DNA from: Massilicoli timonensis
Lineage (GTDB): Bacteria; Bacillota_I; Bacilli_A; Erysipelotrichales; Erysipelotrichaceae
DNA length: 32,000 bases
Assembly (NCBI RefSeq): GCF_900199515.1
Contig: NZ_LT963434.1
Coordinates: 993,272 to 1,025,271, forward strand
Direction of reading: 5' to 3'
The stretch's first letter is position 1. Each line of letters begins with the position of its first letter. Below the pieces are notes generated by a model. It was given only the letters and a program-made list of their open reading frames with translations. It had not been told where the DNA came from and did no database searches. Positions 4,025 to 9,553 of this stretch are shown here, piece by piece. The translations under genes and the position numbers were made by a program.

Positions 4025-7000
4025 TTATTTCGTTTCTTCTTTCTCTTTCTTGCGGCGATAACCAAATACACCTAACAACATCGCTGATAAGAGCGTTCCT
4101 GCTCCCCATACGCCTGCCTGTGTCGTATCTCCTGTTACCACTCCGCCATTGTTTCCGTTCTTGTCCGGTGTGATCGCTTCTATGCTTCCACTGTTCTCTT
4201 CTTCACCATTGTTCAAGATCGTTCCATCCGCATTGACTGCTGCTTCCGGTGCAAGTGGTTTAACTACTCCATTTGCATCTGTCAGCTCTCCACCTTCCGG
4301 CAACGTAACCGTTCCACTTTCATCAATGTGTACTTCATTGCCATTCGGCTTGATCGTATCGCCATTCGCATTGGTGATCGTTCCATCCGGATTCACTACT
4401 GTTCCTCCGCTTGTCTCAATGCTCCCATCTTCCTTGATCGTCGTTCCTGTGCTTGGCACCTTGATCGTTGTGCCTTCATCGGTCGTGATCGTTCCATCAT
4501 TGTTGATCGTGATATCGCCTACGGTCGTATTACCATTCTCTGTTACAACTGATCCATTATCCGGAATCTTGATCGTTGTCCCGTTTTCCGTTGTAATGGT
4601 TCCATCGCTATTGATCGTCGTATTGCCTGATGTCGTTACATCTCCACTTTCCAATACTTCTGATCCTTTATCCGGAATGGTTACCGTTGTACCGCTTTCG
4701 GTGGTAATGGTACCATCCTGATTGACGGTCGTATTGCCTGGTGTAGTAAAGCTTCCATCTGATTCTGCTATTGATCCACCCGGCAAGGTGATCTCTACAT
4801 TTGTATCTCCTACCGGTACATCTTCTGCTTTGTCTACCAGTTTGATATCGACGAAGTGGATCTTTGGATTCATCTTATACATGTCATTTATTTTATAAGT
4901 ATAAGTTGCATAGTCATTTGGCTTGATACCATAAACACGAGTTCCTTCGATCCATGGCATATTATTGGCTCTAGCAGTTGCATCCAATGGTTTTAGATCA
5001 CTGATATGATCCATGATAATACCCGGGAAAGACTCATTAAGATCCGCCCAATAACCTTTCTCTTTATCATAGCCGCCGATCTCTACATCAATAGACTGCG
5101 TTACCAGGTTTGAGAAATTGTTACTGTAGTTTGTAGTAACACCATCCGGAAGATTCAGATATGCGAGATCCGTACCGCTTATATTAACTACTCTATATCC
5201 CTTATTCTTAAAGTTTGGAAGATCCAGATAATGCAGATTAGGCGTGTTGTTTATAACAATATGTCTTAATTCTAGATTCTTTATTCCTTCAAACTTAGTC
5301 AGTTTTGGACAATTACTTGCATAAATCGTATTTAATTTCCCACCATTGCTTACATCCAACACTTCTATATCTGTACGGTTAATTTCTATCTGGGTTCCAA
5401 AGTAGAAAGAATTACCATTAGGATCAGGTTCAAGTTCATCAGTATAACTCGATTCCAAATACGGCGATACAAAAGTTCCGCTTAATCCTGTTCCTCCTAA
5501 ACCGATAAAACCAAGTGTTTTATACCTATCAGCCAGTTTTAGTCCATCATTTGTTAAGTTTTTAGCATTATATAAAGAAAGAATCTGAATATTTTGATTA
5601 TCTTCTACATCAACAGAAGTCAGATTTTCACAATCTTCCGCAAATAATCCCTTGATTTTATTGCCATCAGTTCCACTAACCTTAATGCTTTCCAGCTCAC
5701 CGTTGTTATTCATGAGTACTCGATTGATGTTTTGTAAATTTTTCACTGATGAAGAATCGAAACTCTTGATCTTTGTATTCTCAATGAATAGATGTCGAAG
5801 ATTTGATAAGCTTCCTTCTATCGTATAGTTGTCTTTTGAGGATAAGTCTGTTCCATTTAGATTTAAGGTCGTAATTGTATTGTTAGTACCAAACTTCACC
5901 TTAAATCCTTTTGGCATATTCTGTAGGTTCAATGTCGTAATCGTAGTGTTAGAAGTAAGGTCTAAATCGGTATTGACATTGTTCAAGGTTAAGGTGTTTC
6001 CTGTAAAACCACTAGGAAGAGTGGTTAACTTGGTATCTAGATTTGCCAGTGATAATGATGTCAATGCAGTATAAGCATCTAAGTTTAAGTCGCTCTCTAA
6101 CTTCACATTATTAAGTGTCAGTGATGTTAAAGTAGTTCCACTTGTTGGTAGCTTCACTTCTGTTTCCGGTAAGTTCGCAAGACTTAATGTCGTCAATGTA
6201 CTATTACTAGACAGATCTAATGTAGGTGTCCCTGTCAGACTTGTCCCATCTATGTATAATGTCGTTAATGCTCCTAAGTGCTTGTCTAAGTTTGTAATGC
6301 TTGTAATTCCAGTTGCACCTGATAGGTTCAATGTTCCCATGCTCTTTCCACTCGATGGTAAACTTACGCTTGTTACCTTCGTAGAATTGCTTAAATTCAA
6401 AGTCTTGATTGCACTTACTCCATCGCCTATGCTTACATTGGTCAATGATCCTGCTCCTGTCATCTGGATCTGCTCAAAGTATCCTCCTGTTACTTCCAAA
6501 CTTGTTATCCCGGTGTTGTTTAAGCGCAAGTCTACTCCGTTATCATCTGTACATGTTAAGTTCTCTACTCCCTCTACCTTTGTCAAGGTTGGTATATCTG
6601 CCATTCTGATCAAATATAAATTGGTATTACCTGATCCAAACTTTAATCCGGTGATCTTGCTCTTGAACCCTGCTGCTTCTTTCAATGCAGGCAGGTTTGA
6701 TAGATCGATCTCTCCTTCTACTCCTGAATTGGTAAAGATCAGTTTCTGTAGGCTGCTCTTATTTAATACTGGATCTATGCTCGTTACTTTCGCTATATTG
6801 TTCAAATCTACTGTAACAAGACTATTCAGATTGCTTAATCCATCCAGTGAGGATAACTGTGCCGCTCCATTGATCGTTACACTGGTTACCCCTGTCATAG
6901 TGCTTAACCCTTCTAAACTAGTAAGGTTTGGTACACTGCTTAGATTCACTGTTGTGATCTTCTGAAACTTCTCTAATCCTTGTAGATCGGTCAATTTAGA

Positions 7001-7339
7001 TTTTACAGCATCAGCAGTTGGGTTGAATGTAGTAATATTATTCAACTCTGTCTGTGATAATTTACCATCACTATCTTTATCCCAACTACTTAAATTGTTT
7101 GCGATCCACTGTCTGATGCCTTCATCAGGAAAGTTTGTTTCATTGATCTCATACTTTGCTTCTTCCTGTGCATCTGCCAATACCTGGATACCACTACTTT
7201 CTACTTCATTTACTTCTCCTGTTTCAACAGGTTCTCCCTGTTCCATTGCATGCACCAGGTTCCCACTGATCGTGCTCATCCCTAATAATAAGGCTGTCCC
7301 TGCCGCTGCTTTTGCTTTCATCTTCTTTCTCTTGTCCAT
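4025..7339 (-). CDS. Large secreted leucine-rich-repeat (LRR) surface protein with C-terminal tandem repeats and membrane/cell-wall anchor
   Basis: 1104-aa ORF with AAGGAGG SD. N-terminal signal peptide (KKMKAKAAAGTALLLGMSTISGNLVHA). EF-hand/dockerin-like cap (DKDSDGKLSQTELNNITTF). Dozens of ~22-aa LxxLxLxxN-type repeats. Gly/Thr-rich ~36-aa tandem repeats. C-terminus is GVVTGD, then a hydrophobic helix, then RRKKEKEETK. Confidence 0.85.
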   Translation of the reverse strand: MDKRKKMKAKAAAGTALLLGMSTISGNLVHAMEQGEPVETGEVNEVESSGIQVLADAQEEAKYEINETNFPDEGIRQWIANNLSSWDKDSDGKLSQTELNNITTFNPTADAVKSKLTDLQGLEKFQKITTVNLSSVPNLTSLEGLSTMTGVTSVTINGAAQLSSLDGLSNLNSLVTVDLNNIAKVTSIDPVLNKSSLQKLIFTNSGVEGEIDLSNLPALKEAAGFKSKITGLKFGSGNTNLYLIRMADIPTLTKVEGVENLTCTDDNGVDLRLNNTGITSLEVTGGYFEQIQMTGAGSLTNVSIGDGVSAIKTLNLSNSTKVTSVSLPSSGKSMGTLNLSGATGITSITNLDKHLGALTTLYIDGTSLTGTPTLDLSSNSTLTTLSLANLPETEVKLPTSGTTLTSLTLNNVKLESDLNLDAYTALTSLSLANLDTKLTTLPSGFTGNTLTLNNVNTDLDLTSNTTITTLNLQNMPKGFKVKFGTNNTITTLNLNGTDLSSKDNYTIEGSLSNLRHLFIENTKIKSFDSSSVKNLQNINRVLMNNNGELESIKVSGTDGNKIKGLFAEDCENLTSVDVEDNQNIQILSLYNAKNLTNDGLKLADRYKTLGFIGLGGTGLSGTFVSPYLESSYTDELEPDPNGNSFYFGTQIEINRTDIEVLDVSNGGKLNTIYASNCPKLTKFEGIKNLELRHIVINNTPNLHYLDLPNFKNKGYRVVNISGTDLAYLNLPDGVTTNYSNNFSNLVTQSIDVEIGGYDKEKGYWADLNESFPGIIMDHISDLKPLDATARANNMPWIEGTRVYGIKPNDYATYTYKINDMYKMNPKIHFVDIKLVDKAEDVPVGDTNVEITLPGGSIAESDGSFTTPGNTTVNQDGTITTESGTTVTIPDKGSEVLESGDVTTSGNTTINSDGTITTENGTTIKIPDNGSVVTENGNTTVGDITINNDGTITTDEGTTIKVPSTGTTIKEDGSIETSGGTVVNPDGTITNANGDTIKPNGNEVHIDESGTVTLPEGGELTDANGVVKPLAPEAAVNADGTILNNGEEENSGSIEAITPDKNGNNGGVVTGDTTQAGVWGAGTLLSAMLLGVFGYRRKKEKEETK
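4200..4790 (-). repeat. In-frame tandem coding repeats (~105-110 bp period) in the LRR protein C-terminus
   Basis: gatcgttccatc / aatggttccatc recurs at about 4210, 4376, 4486, 4590 and 4700. The protein repeats are of the form GNTT(V/I)NxDGTITTExGTT(V/I)xIPDxGS. Confidence 0.6.
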
Positions 7340-7368
7340 TCTCTTGTTCCTCCTCCTTTGACTTCTCT

Positions 7369-7394
7369 TGCAACATAATAAACATTATGTTGCA
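7369..7394. repeat. Recombinase-site-like palindrome, copy 1 (core AAAC)
   Basis: tgCAACATAAT-AAAC-ATTATGTTGca, 30 nt upstream of the LRR ATG. Same core orientation as copy 2. Confidence 0.75.
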
Positions 7395-7432
7395 GGTACT
7401 GCTCTCTTTCTTTGTCCACTTAATAAGATTCG

Positions 7433-7458
7433 TACAACATAATAAACATTATGTTGTA
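7433..7458. repeat. Recombinase-site-like palindrome, copy 2 (core AAAC); left inverted repeat of the putative switch
   Basis: TACAACATAAT-AAAC-ATTATGTTGTA. Positions 7434-7458 are the exact reverse complement of 7634-7658. Confidence 0.8.
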
Positions 7459-7483
7459 ATAAAAAAGCACACTTGATGTGTGC
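7459..7483 (-). terminator. Terminator hairpin inside the invertible segment (acts on the minus strand in the sequenced orientation)
   Basis: Minus strand reads GCACAC-atcaa-GTGTGC followed by TTTTTTa. It sits between the recombinase gene and the LRR gene. Confidence 0.5.
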
Positions 7484-7563
7484 GAACTTCCTTTTTTCTT
7501 TATTTTCTCTAATTTCTATTACTTTTCTATCATTAAATCATAGCAAATCACTATGAAAAACGG

Positions 7564-7592
7564 TTTACAAATACTGTAAAATAGTGTATAAA
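7564..7592 (+). promoter_or_regulatory. Sigma-A-type promoter inside the invertible segment, currently pointing away from the LRR gene
   Basis: TTTACA-N17-TATAAA(T) on the plus strand (7564-7569 and 7587-7592). No comparable promoter was found in the fixed DNA between 7340 and 7433 on the minus strand. Confidence 0.45.
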
Positions 7593-7633
7593 TATCTTGT
7601 ATCATAGTTTTATAGATTATTTTTTCTATTTCG

Positions 7634-7658
7634 TACAACATAATGTTTATTATGTTGT
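7634..7658. repeat. Recombinase-site-like palindrome, copy 3 (core GTTT, inverted relative to copies 1 and 2); right inverted repeat
   Basis: TACAACATAAT-GTTT-ATTATGTTGT followed by T6. The arms match copy 2 and only the 4-bp core is flipped. Confidence 0.8.
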
Positions 7659-7662
7659 TTTT

Positions 7663-8481
7663 TTATATCAATCCCAGCCTTTCGATATCCCGCTGATAGC
7701 TCCCTATCCCCTCCTTCAAATAGATCCTTGTTGTATCCATACTGCTGTGTCCCAATAGGTCCGCTAATCTCGATACATCATTGCATACCTTATAATACGT
7801 CTTTGCATATAAATGCCTTAAATTGTGCGGATACACCTTCTCTTCCCTTACCATCGCTTTCTCCCCTAACTTCTTCATCTTCCTCCATATCGCTACCCGA
7901 TCCATGCTCTTCCCGCTCCTCGTCACAAAGATCTTCCCCCTCTCGATCTTCCTCCCTCTTACATACGCCTTGATCTTTCGGATCAGCTTCTTCGGCAACA
8001 AGATCATCCGCTCCTTCCCCTTATTATAGATCTTGATCCTTCCGCTTCGATAATTCTCTACCGTTACATACTGTAATTCACTTACCCGCATCCCTGTCGA
8101 TCCCAATGTCTCCAGCAGCAGCTTCATCCGCTCATCTCCCTGTGCTGCTTCGATCAGCCGATGATATTCTTTCTTCTTTAAGTTCTTTCGCTCTTCCGCA
8201 AATACTTCTTTCTGGATCTTGATGCTTTTCATCCGCAGTTCTTCTTTTCCGATGAAGCGAAAGTAACTGTTTAGTGATGCCAGCATGGAATTGATCGAGC
8301 GCAAGGCATACTCTTTCATCAGTTCGTTTTTATATTCCCTTACTGCTTTTTTCTCTAATGGTGCATCTTTCAGATACCGATAGAACTGCTTGACATCTCT
8401 TTCATACTTCTCGATCGTATGTTCACTTTTTTCATTCTCATACAGATATTCGATAAATGCTTGGATCTCTTTTCTTTCCAT
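7663..8481 (-). CDS. Tyrosine site-specific recombinase (XerC/D-FimB/RecV-like)
   Basis: Catalytic signature residues are present: GMRVSEL (Arg), HNLRH (His-x-x-Arg), LLGHSSMDTTRIY (His...Tyr nucleophile). The track ORF starts at 8523. I prefer the ATG at 8481 (MERKEIQ...), which has an AAGGAG SD and lies downstream of a TATAAT at 8512-8517. Confidence 0.9.
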   Translation of the reverse strand: MERKEIQAFIEYLYENEKSEHTIEKYERDVKQFYRYLKDAPLEKKAVREYKNELMKEYALRSINSMLASLNSYFRFIGKEELRMKSIKIQKEVFAEERKNLKKKEYHRLIEAAQGDERMKLLLETLGSTGMRVSELQYVTVENYRSGRIKIYNKGKERMILLPKKLIRKIKAYVRGRKIERGKIFVTRSGKSMDRVAIWRKMKKLGEKAMVREEKVYPHNLRHLYAKTYYKVCNDVSRLADLLGHSSMDTTRIYLKEGIGSYQRDIERLGLI

Positions 8482-8541
8482 TCTTTCTCTCTCCTTTGCT
8501 TTTTGTTTTTCATTATAGCGCATCCTGCTTCATTTAAGCAT

Positions 8542-8578
8542 AAAAAAAGATATGTCCACTGCTGTGTAACATATCTTT
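8542..8578 (-). terminator. Rho-independent terminator after pta
   Basis: Minus strand reads AAAGATATGT-13 nt loop-ACATATCTTT followed by TTTT, immediately after the pta stop at 8585. Confidence 0.7.
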
Positions 8579-8584
8579 ATTTAA

Positions 8585-9553
8585 TTATTGAATCAAAGTA
8601 GCCATTGCGGTAACGATTGCCATCTTATAGACTTCTTCACTCGTACAGCCGCGTGATAAATCGTTGATCGGTGCATTTAAGCCTTGCAGGATCGGTCCGA
8701 TCGCTTCATAACCGCCTAAACGAGAAGCGATCTTATAGCCGATGTTTGCGGCATCAATATTCGGGAAAATAAAGACATTGGCTCTTCCCGCAACCTTTGA
8801 CTGCGGCGCCTTTACTTTTGCCACGACCGGCGATACGGAAGCATCAAACTGCAATTCTCCATCTACCGGATACTCTAATGTAATGTTTTTCAAACGCTGT
8901 GTAGCAGAACGCACCTTATTGACACTTTCTCCCTTAGCGCTGCCCATAGAAGAATAAGACAGCAACGAAACAACCGGATCGATACCGAAGAATTTTGCGG
9001 TCTTCGCCGTTTCCATCGTAATTTCAACCAAGTCATCTTCCGTCGGTGCAATGTTGATCGAGCAATCGCCGAATACCAGACGTTCTTCACCTTTGCACAG
9101 GATAAAGCAGCTGGAAACGATGCTGTTGTTTGGTTTGGTCTTGATCAGCTGCAGAGCCGGACGCACGGTATCGGCTGTCGAGTAGGTCGCACCGCCTAAT
9201 AAGCCGTCCGCATATCCCATTTTCACATACATCGTACCGAAATAATTGGTTCCCTCCAGCATCGCTTTCGCACTTGCCTGATCTAATTTACCACGGCGCA
9301 GTTCTACCATCATACGCGCCATTTCTTCCATGCTTTCAAAATGCAGATGATCGACAATGTCGATGCCTTCAATATCTAATCCCAGATCCTGCGCCGCCTG
9401 TTTGATCTCATCGGGATCTCCCAATAATACCGGACATAAGATCTCATCATGATGCAAACGTGCTGCCGCCTGCAAGATACGCGGTTCACTGCCTTCCGGG
9501 AAAACGATTCGAATATTTTTTCCTTTGATCTCCTTAATCAGATTTTCAACCAT
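8585..9553 (-). CDS. pta: Phosphate acetyltransferase
   Basis: PTA_PTB-type sequence (IRIVFPEGSEPRILQAA, GPILQGLNAPINDLSRGC). Preferred start is MVENLIKE at 9553, with a GTGAGGA SD. The track ORF extends to 9607 without an SD. Confidence 0.9.
   Translation of the reverse strand: MVENLIKEIKGKNIRIVFPEGSEPRILQAAARLHHDEILCPVLLGDPDEIKQAAQDLGLDIEGIDIVDHLHFESMEEMARMMVELRRGKLDQASAKAMLEGTNYFGTMYVKMGYADGLLGGATYSTADTVRPALQLIKTKPNNSIVSSCFILCKGEERLVFGDCSINIAPTEDDLVEITMETAKTAKFFGIDPVVSLLSYSSMGSAKGESVNKVRSATQRLKNITLEYPVDGELQFDASVSPVVAKVKAPQSKVAGRANVFIFPNIDAANIGYKIASRLGGYEAIGPILQGLNAPINDLSRGCTSEEVYKMAIVTAMATLIQ

Follow-up and report, generated by a model that had tools for sequence, protein, structure and literature searches.

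The question raised by this locus is whether the gene of a large leucine-rich-repeat (LRR) surface protein is switched on or off in the orientation in which its DNA was sequenced. The window, by which is meant the whole analysed stretch of 32,000 nucleotides (nt) from Massilicoli timonensis, holds a region at 7371-7664 between a tyrosine recombinase gene and the LRR gene, both on the minus strand (coordinates refer to the whole stretch, with position 1 as its first letter). Here, this region is proposed to act as a DNA-inversion switch, which would be run by the tyrosine recombinase encoded adjacent to it and upstream, and which would control the LRR gene. The sequenced orientation is quite probably the OFF state. 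An earlier sequence-only reading had reached the same view on the grounds that the promoter points away from the LRR gene, that its transcript stops at the recombinase-proximal site S3, that a terminator stands against read-through, and that inversion would reverse all of this. That view is supported by the placement of promoters across the recombinase family, by the T-tract beside S3, by terminators found in the OFF configuration and by natural rearrangements. The same reading had pictured a flip between two states; the three-site anatomy and the natural variants point instead to four predicted states.

The switch is built from a 22-base-pair (bp) site, CAACATAAT-NNNN-ATTATGTTG, of which three copies are observed compared with 0.01 expected by chance. 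Each copy is palindromic, its asymmetry being confined to the 4-bp core, and S3 is inverted relative to S1 and S2, with 22/22 bases complementary to each of them. Between the sites lie two segments, a larger promoter/terminator cassette A and a small second segment B (Table 1). The stop codon of the recombinase gene, at 7663-7665, is 5 nt from S3 and is overlapped by the T6 tract, so that a site-specific recombinase gene directly adjoins the switch. Its product matches Pfam Phage_integrase (E 1e-22) together with a SAM-like N-terminal domain, and the catalytic residues R146, K170, H233, R236, H259, and Y268 are invariant in recombinase alignment A1. One source lists the protein under the name of an M. 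timonensis recombinase, and cluster names point to this organism. On the opposite side, the LRR open reading frame (ORF) starts 31 nt beyond S1. Two further candidates were discarded in this region: a 17-codon ORF inside A was rejected as coding for want of a ribosome-binding site, and a -10-like CATAAT present within every site was rejected as a promoter since it has no -35 partner. A search against Rfam gave only a meaningless sub-threshold match to a snoRNA.

Table 1. Positions of the switch components and of the two genes on either side of them.
Feature	Positions	Strand	Description
LRR gene (regulated gene)	4025-7339	-	1104-amino-acid (aa) leucine-rich-repeat surface protein; Pfam LRR_EndoS and LRR_4; from the translation
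Ribosome-binding site	7350-7357	-	AGGAGGAG, 10 nt before the LRR gene ATG; from sequence reading
Site S1, gene-proximal	7371-7392		CAACATAAT-AAAC-ATTATGTTG
Segment B	7393-7434		42 bp, small second invertible segment; inverted near the recombinase gene, or absent, in other contigs
Site S2, middle	7435-7456		CAACATAAT-AAAC-ATTATGTTG
Segment A	7457-7635		179 bp, invertible promoter/terminator cassette; bounded by reverse-complement cores
Terminator-like hairpin	7461-7483	-	GCACAC-ATCAA-GTGTGC and T6; hairpin 7483-7467, TTTTTT 7466-7461; called by the scan
Candidate promoter	7564-7592	+	TTTACA-N17-TATAAA; TTTACA 7564-7569, TATAAA 7587-7592, T at 7593; toward the 3' end of the recombinase gene
Site S3, recombinase-proximal	7636-7657		CAACATAAT-GTTT-ATTATGTTG; 10-bp hairpin arms 7635-7658
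T6 tract	7659-7664	+	Immediately follows the S3 hairpin and is not part of the invertible DNA; proposed terminator tail toward the recombinase gene
Tyrosine recombinase gene	7663-8523	-	ORF of 286 aa; mostly annotated as 272 aa with start at 8481

The four arrangements of the window were modelled in silico, and the paths of transcription were read for terminator-like shapes. Segment A would carry a promoter near one end, firing outward through the adjacent site, and a terminator on the opposite strand at its other end. In state 1, which is the sequenced one, the transcript of the candidate promoter meets the S3 hairpin followed by T6, and the path from the recombinase gene contains the GCACAC terminator. 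In this OFF arrangement, the promoter would be directed toward the 3' end of the recombinase gene and its transcript of about 60 nt would end at S3 and T6; read-through from the recombinase gene would be halted at the GCACAC terminator, before S2, B, S1, and the LRR gene. State 4 follows the logic of state 1 with B on the other side, the GCACAC terminator again being on the path. In state 3, obtained by recombination of S1 with S3 (modelled junction CTATTTCGTA-site-CAAGAGAAGTC), the promoter is directed at the gene, a 9-bp site hairpin is all that stands before the ribosome-binding site, and there is no terminator-like shape either on the path of the promoter or on that of recombinase read-through. 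Here the whole module would have flipped, the promoter would lie about 95 nt upstream of the LRR start codon, and the terminator would have been moved to the strand on which it is non-functional, so that the gene would be ON. In state 2, obtained by recombination of S2 with S3 (modelled junction AAAAAAA-site-TAATAAAAAAGCACAC), A alone would flip and the promoter would likewise face the gene. The inner flank of A then pairs with the start of B across the site, giving a 15-bp hairpin of -17.3 kcal/mol followed by UCUUAUUAAG, and this hairpin has a terminator shape by the same criteria; the new hairpin and its U-rich stretch may attenuate expression. The earlier expectation that the ON transcript crosses only sites without a T-tract holds in state 3 and does not strictly hold in state 2, and only the whole-module flip is predicted to give a clean ON path. 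Taken over the four states, the recombinase-to-gene strand carries the terminator shape in states 1 and 4 but not in states 2 and 3, where it is on the opposite strand, so that, as far as shape can tell, it would act in one orientation.

Natural variants were read from contigs whose encoded recombinase is the same or nearly identical (contigs and loci carry labels beginning with L; rec denotes the recombinase gene, and A' and B' the inverted cassettes). Three arrangements and a deletion of B are observed, and the rearrangements fall exactly at the three sites. State 1, rec-S-A-S-B-S-gene, is found in the window and in 14 other contigs. State 4, rec-S-B'-S-A-S-gene, is found in L001, L002, L012/L111, and L096, which come from four or more samples; in these contigs the orientation of A is kept and B has moved next to the recombinase gene. 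Contigs without B, reading rec-S-A-S-gene (L095, L112, and L113), are the expected product of recombination between the direct repeats S2 and S1. State 3 is represented by L097, in which rec-S-B'-S is followed by TAATAAAAAAGCACACTTGATGTGTGCGAACTT; here A is entered from its terminator end and is therefore flipped (rec-S-B'-S-A'...). In L116, as in all of the state-4 and state-3 contigs, B is inverted and moved, and the rearrangements of L001, L002, L096, L097, L111, and L116 have S3 as their junction. L002 is from metagenome ERZ28618604 and L097 from metagenome ERZ15809274. Two inversions separate state 4 from state 1, and whichever route is taken, A is flipped in the intermediate; the alternative is excision and re-insertion of B. 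The junction of recombinase gene, site and B' was found independently in at least five contigs. Since state-1 genomes also contain the junction B'-S-A' on their opposite strand, it is the unbroken passage of L097 through the 86-bp S-B-S module that speaks for state 3, and L097 is a probable natural variant with A flipped rather than an assembly chimera. A scan of metagenome contigs of the JGI with an exact pattern from the centre of A gave 2 contigs, both of them OFF-like.

The wider recombinase family provides the evidence on the promoter. With one genome taken per species, the family scan gave at least 80 loci whose recombinases are 45-52% identical to that of the window; the M. timonensis genome itself is not among the loci listed. 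Paired sites of the pattern [AC]ACATAAT-N4-ATTATGT[GT], with reverse-complement cores and a segment of 150-400 bp between them, were found at 56 of the 80 listed loci, the segment beginning 10-30 bp after the recombinase stop codon. By position-weight scoring, a promoter scoring at least 13 is present in 41 of these 56 segments compared with 0.5% of shuffles. The typical form is TTGACA-N17-TATAAT with an extended TG: TTGACA occurs 34 times, TATAAT 26 times, and the extended TG in 43 of the 47 segments that score at least 11. The -10 element ends a median of 36 nt (interquartile range 30-37, range 16-48) before the site through which the promoter fires. In direction, 12 of these promoters face the downstream gene and 33 face back to the recombinase gene, and the orientation of the window is therefore the common one in reference assemblies.

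The candidate promoter of the window, for which sequence reading confirmed the plus strand and the 17-nt spacer at the position previously given, is the positional equivalent of this near-consensus family promoter. M. timonensis-type contigs supplied 11 distinct variants of A, among which the promoter block GTTTACAAATACTGTAAAATAGTGTATAA is invariant except at the sixth base of the -10 element. In L109, where the recombinase is 57% identical, the aligned block TTTACAAATTTTGGAAAATAGTGTATAAA agrees at 25/29 bases with identical hexamers, and the rest of the segment has diverged; in L105, with a recombinase 60% identical, TTTACA-N17-TATTAA stands at the aligned position. The positional equivalence, the conservation in L109 and L105 and the invariance among variants argue that the sequence-only reading had picked the right element, which is a degenerate and probably weak copy of the family promoter. 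On the strand of the LRR gene, the consensus scan found no promoter-like site between the GCACAC terminator and the start codon. At position 7592, the sixth base of the -10 element, most variants carry A, while L098, L102, and L120 carry C; the consensus T is never found there, and the 28 bases upstream are invariant.

The second line of evidence concerns the T-tract. In 75% of the 56 loci, the outer flank of the recombinase-side site has T at 6 or more of 8 positions, compared with 9% on the gene side and 4-9% at the inner flanks. Owing to this asymmetry, the T6 tract of the window can be regarded as a conserved and side-specific feature, and it fits termination of the OFF transcript before an antisense run into the recombinase gene. 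Both hairpins with their T6 tracts were confirmed where the earlier reading had placed them, the GCACAC hairpin being on the minus strand. The same holds for its remark that the T-tract is peculiar to the third copy of the site: the hairpins of S1 and S2 have no T-tract on either strand.

Terminators in the OFF configuration form the third line. The terminator scan, which needs at least 3 G-C pairs in the stem, found 3 terminator-like sites, two of which are overlapping calls of the GCACAC hairpin, compared with 0.4 in shuffles. The stem of this hairpin is invariant and its loop variable among the 11 variants of A. An analogous hairpin at the segment end far from the promoter is found in L109, L017, L023, L056, L069, and L081, and in L109 the hairpin and its T-run occupy the same place as the GCACAC hairpin with a different sequence. 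When 45 family loci were flipped in silico, 16 had a terminator on the recombinase-to-gene path in the OFF configuration. In 8 of these 16, hairpins of 15-20 bp and -17 to -32 kcal/mol, followed by a T-run, form in the OFF orientation only; they are composed of the gene-side site and complementary inner and outer flanks, with the promoter facing away from the gene. Several others of the 16 carry separate hairpins at the segment end far from the promoter, as in the window. The OFF-only hairpin was seen in the current state of L037, L044, L063, L077, and L092, and after the in-silico flip in L018, L060, and L067.

Three-site modules are likewise not peculiar to the window. A third site lies 30-55 bp from one end in 12 listed loci (L015, L016, L021, L025, L030, L034, L050, L068, L075, L077, L080, and L086), and these loci jointly occupy all four predicted states. 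Because a T-run follows the site adjoining A in 5 of the 6 three-site loci that have B on the gene side, it may be speculated that B serves as a movable attenuator.

Several observations weigh against an OFF state governed in this way. In the window itself, the consensus scan does not list the candidate promoter, because the -10 element has no T at its sixth position; it returned three different 9/12 matches, with one at 7628-7601 on the minus strand, and these 3 promoter-like matches in the region compare with 5.2 expected in shuffles. Position-weight scoring gave 4.1 for the candidate, and the best sites in shuffled segments averaged 7.7. The assertion that this is the only good promoter was thus not backed by motif statistics alone, and since these statistics did not single out the candidate, the comparison with related loci was made. 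The highly conserved T at the end of the -10 element is missing (the hexamer is TATAAA, and TATAAC in three variants), as is a correctly spaced TG, and the -10 element ends 44 nt before S3, at the far end of the family range. Of the two hairpins read as terminators, the GCACAC hairpin folds at -9.2 kcal/mol and is called by the scan; the S3 hairpin is A/U-rich and has 2 G-C pairs, with energies of -8.1 to -8.6 kcal/mol (-8.6 by folding), and is not called. Regarding orientation, A could be read in 34 contigs of this species group, of which 33 are as in the window and 1 is flipped, and no contig spans a complete ON state. For this species, the flipped orientation is probably represented by the single contig L097; among family loci both orientations occur (12 and 33). 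L097 stops after 33 nt of A, 55 nt from the start of the site; 55 nt would be one SPAdes k-mer if the final k was 55, and the 86-bp S-B-S repeat is shared between states and between paralogous loci.

The deficiencies of the promoter give some weight to another reading, in which the internal promoter is inactive in this species and the switch is driven mainly by the terminator as in cwpV of C. difficile, the LRR gene being expressed by read-through from the recombinase gene, which the GCACAC terminator would stop as sequenced and let through after a flip; the sequenced state would then still be OFF. The -7 T is missing and is replaced by A or C among the variants, the score is below that of shuffles, and of the signals in the window itself only the GCACAC terminator has statistical support. 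Moreover, orientation-dependent terminators are common in the family, and in state 3 the path from the recombinase gene is unblocked. We nevertheless hold this reading to be distinctly unlikely, as the 29-nt promoter block was kept among the 11 variants of A and in L109 while its surroundings diverged, as it sits at the position of the near-consensus family promoter, and as the conservation of the recombinase-side T-tract is hard to explain unless transcription leaves the segment outward. An ON or leaky sequenced orientation appears highly improbable. It would require a promoter on the minus strand, either in A (TAGAAA-N16-TATGAT at 7628-7601) or in or near the sites, with the GCACAC hairpin as an attenuator. 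The motif in A does match the consensus at 9/12 positions and has the best score on that strand, 5.5, and if the gene were never expressed, the finding of 33 of 34 contigs in this orientation would be odd. This score is, however, below the shuffle average, a canonical terminator stands between the motif and the LRR gene, and the motif has no counterpart in the family, whose single strong promoter fires outward near a site. The majority facing the recombinase gene is seen in the family too, which fits phase variation with OFF as the default.

The role of S3 within the OFF state allows a further alternative, in which the hairpin and T-tract are not a terminator at all. The palindrome would be a binding site of the recombinase, and the A/T tract would serve recombination, through bending or an accessory protein, or would belong to the 3' end of the recombinase transcript; the OFF transcript would run antisense into the recombinase gene and may regulate it. 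The low G-C content of the stem, its energy of -8.1 kcal/mol and the failure to pass the scan agree with this, as do the palindromic form of all sites whatever their flank and the overlap of the tract with the stop codon. On the other hand, the T-tract is found at 75% of recombinase-side and 9% of gene-side flanks despite equivalent site sequences, and many relatives have more G-C in the arms of the site (CCACATAAT...), which together with the T-run passes as a terminator. Where S3 adjoins a different flank, as in L100 and L005, the site is followed in the same direction by a strong hairpin with T7. This alternative is therefore considered unlikely, although it deserves more weight than the two preceding ones, and predicted termination of the OFF transcript at S3 is preferred.

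Many assemblies break within 20-150 bp after the recombinase stop codon, at or in the switch (L035, L043, L049, L057, L064, L079, L087, L091, L001, L003, L004, L010, and L011), which is what mixed orientations or repeated switch modules would cause. In L099 (2000-2720), A is interrupted inside the promoter spacer and is followed by unrelated G+C-rich DNA with an adenylyltransferase (resistance-like) gene nearby. In L010 (2440-2508), A diverges after ...GATTTAATGAT, at the end of the contig. Such interruptions may be assembly chimeras or insertions by which the switch is locked or destroyed.

Near-identical modules of recombinase gene and switch, with 99% protein identity, are found in at least five genomic contexts (L006-L013, L094-L104, and L111-L122, corresponding to 7340-8600 of the window). 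Their upstream neighbours are pta; an M20 peptidase with a methyltransferase; ClpB; NAPRTase with DUF2238; and an unknown flank, "X". Downstream are different large surface-protein genes, namely those of LRR proteins of 1104 and 1151 aa and an operon of the type 105-aa/PepSY/LRR. Upstream and downstream partners are re-assorted between samples: in L098 pta-rec is joined to the PepSY operon. In L005 a flank stands before S-A-S-B-S-LRR, and rec-S of L100 runs into the reverse complement of this flank. Switch sites at different loci appear to have recombined with one another. Furthermore, when L012/L111 is compared with L006 and the window, the flanks and the type of B are those of locus 2, and A is identical to the locus-1 type of the window; this mixture suggests that cassettes are exchanged or homogenised between paralogous switches. 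Taken jointly, a tentative and on the whole doubtful model may be put forward. The third site and B would make a four-state device, partially ON with B between A and the gene (state 2) and fully ON with B on the recombinase side (state 3), and the shared sites would let at least five loci swap downstream operons by large chromosomal rearrangements. If true, this would be a genome-wide system of surface-protein variation driven by one recombinase family.

Regarding the genes on both sides, the minus strand at 8524-8584, between the pta and recombinase genes, holds GATATGT...ACATATC followed by T7, a terminator shape after pta. After it, a TATAAT box lies on the same strand about 35 nt before the start region of the recombinase gene. 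These two features point to the recombinase gene probably having its own promoter. The translated LRR protein begins with a signal peptide, and at its other end a hydrophobic stretch leads into a basic tail. Its C-terminus (4025-4140, minus strand) reads ...GGVVTGDTTQAGVWGAGTLLSAMLLGVFGYRRKKEKEETK, which resembles a sortase sorting signal without a canonical LPXTG, and a long run of degenerate "DGTITT" repeats precedes the hydrophobic stretch.

The comparison across loci yields a sequence rule by which ON and OFF can be read in this inverton family, which is very widespread in gut Clostridia and Erysipelotrichia. One site has a strong promoter lying about 36 nt inward of it, the recombinase-side site is flanked on its outer side by a T-tract, and an OFF-specific terminator is often present. 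With this rule, the orientation of metagenomic reads could be turned into expression states for many adhesin-like surface proteins. Applied to M. timonensis, the rule predicts that the LRR surface proteins are phase-variable and, in gut populations, mostly OFF, and the three-site modules suggest graded rather than binary control.

Among known systems, the locus resembles fimS of E. coli with FimB/FimE. Both have a short invertible promoter (about 300 bp in fimS) for a surface structure, adjacent upstream tyrosine recombinase genes transcribed toward the switch, a recombinase transcript whose 3' end would depend on orientation, and OFF as the default. The sites differ, being 22-bp palindromes with a 4-bp asymmetric centre here and simple 9-bp repeats in fimS. 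Moreover, three sites, two cassettes and one adjacent recombinase are present here, compared with two recombinases at fimS. Orientational control of fimE is Rho-dependent, whereas the terminator of the present locus has an intrinsic shape, and there is no evidence of homology between its sites and those of fimS. In the cwpV switch of C. difficile, which is acted on by RecV, an intrinsic terminator is proposed to be effective in one orientation of an element of about 195 bp that contains no promoter, and recV is far from the switch (PMC2784873). The present locus shares with it a Gram-positive gut host, a large phase-variable cell-surface protein and a predicted orientation-dependent intrinsic terminator. 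It differs in its adjacent recombinase gene and in its terminator, which is a separate hairpin inside the cassette; the OFF-only hairpins of relatives are closer to cwpV, their terminator being composed from the recombination site itself. Because a conserved promoter-like block is found inside A, whereas the promoter of cwpV is outside the element and none is inside, the locus is not of the cwpV type, although the terminator logic is shared.

A closer relation may be seen to "inverton group 139" with tyrosine "invertase group 35" of gut Clostridia, described in a 2025 survey (PMC11892184). These invertons are intergenic, about 230-256 bp long and almost confined to Clostridia; nearly all adjoin a tyrosine recombinase gene, and they flip in culture as judged by read mapping (PMC11892184). 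The site-to-site spacings of that group, 231 and 241 bp, match common spacings in the family studied here. The family is probably group 139, on agreement in size, taxonomy and recombinase adjacency. M. timonensis, a member of the Erysipelotrichaceae, was apparently not in the community of that survey, which does not describe three-site modules, the recombinase-side T-tract or one-orientation terminators (PMC11892184). In having three sites that allow more than two arrangements by successive inversions, the locus is similar to multiple-inversion systems such as the R64 shufflon with Rci, vpma/vsa of Mycoplasma and the multi-promoter inversions of Bacteroides. One recombinase type for several loci and deletions between direct repeats are further points in common. 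Those systems shuffle coding segments or link a promoter to alternative genes, whereas cassettes A and B are non-coding and would set the transcription level of one gene. The locus would thus unite the logic of fimS with a cwpV-like orientation-dependent intrinsic terminator. A switch of this kind is already known; less familiar are its layout of three sites and four predicted states, the conserved T-tract on the recombinase side and the organisation over multiple loci.

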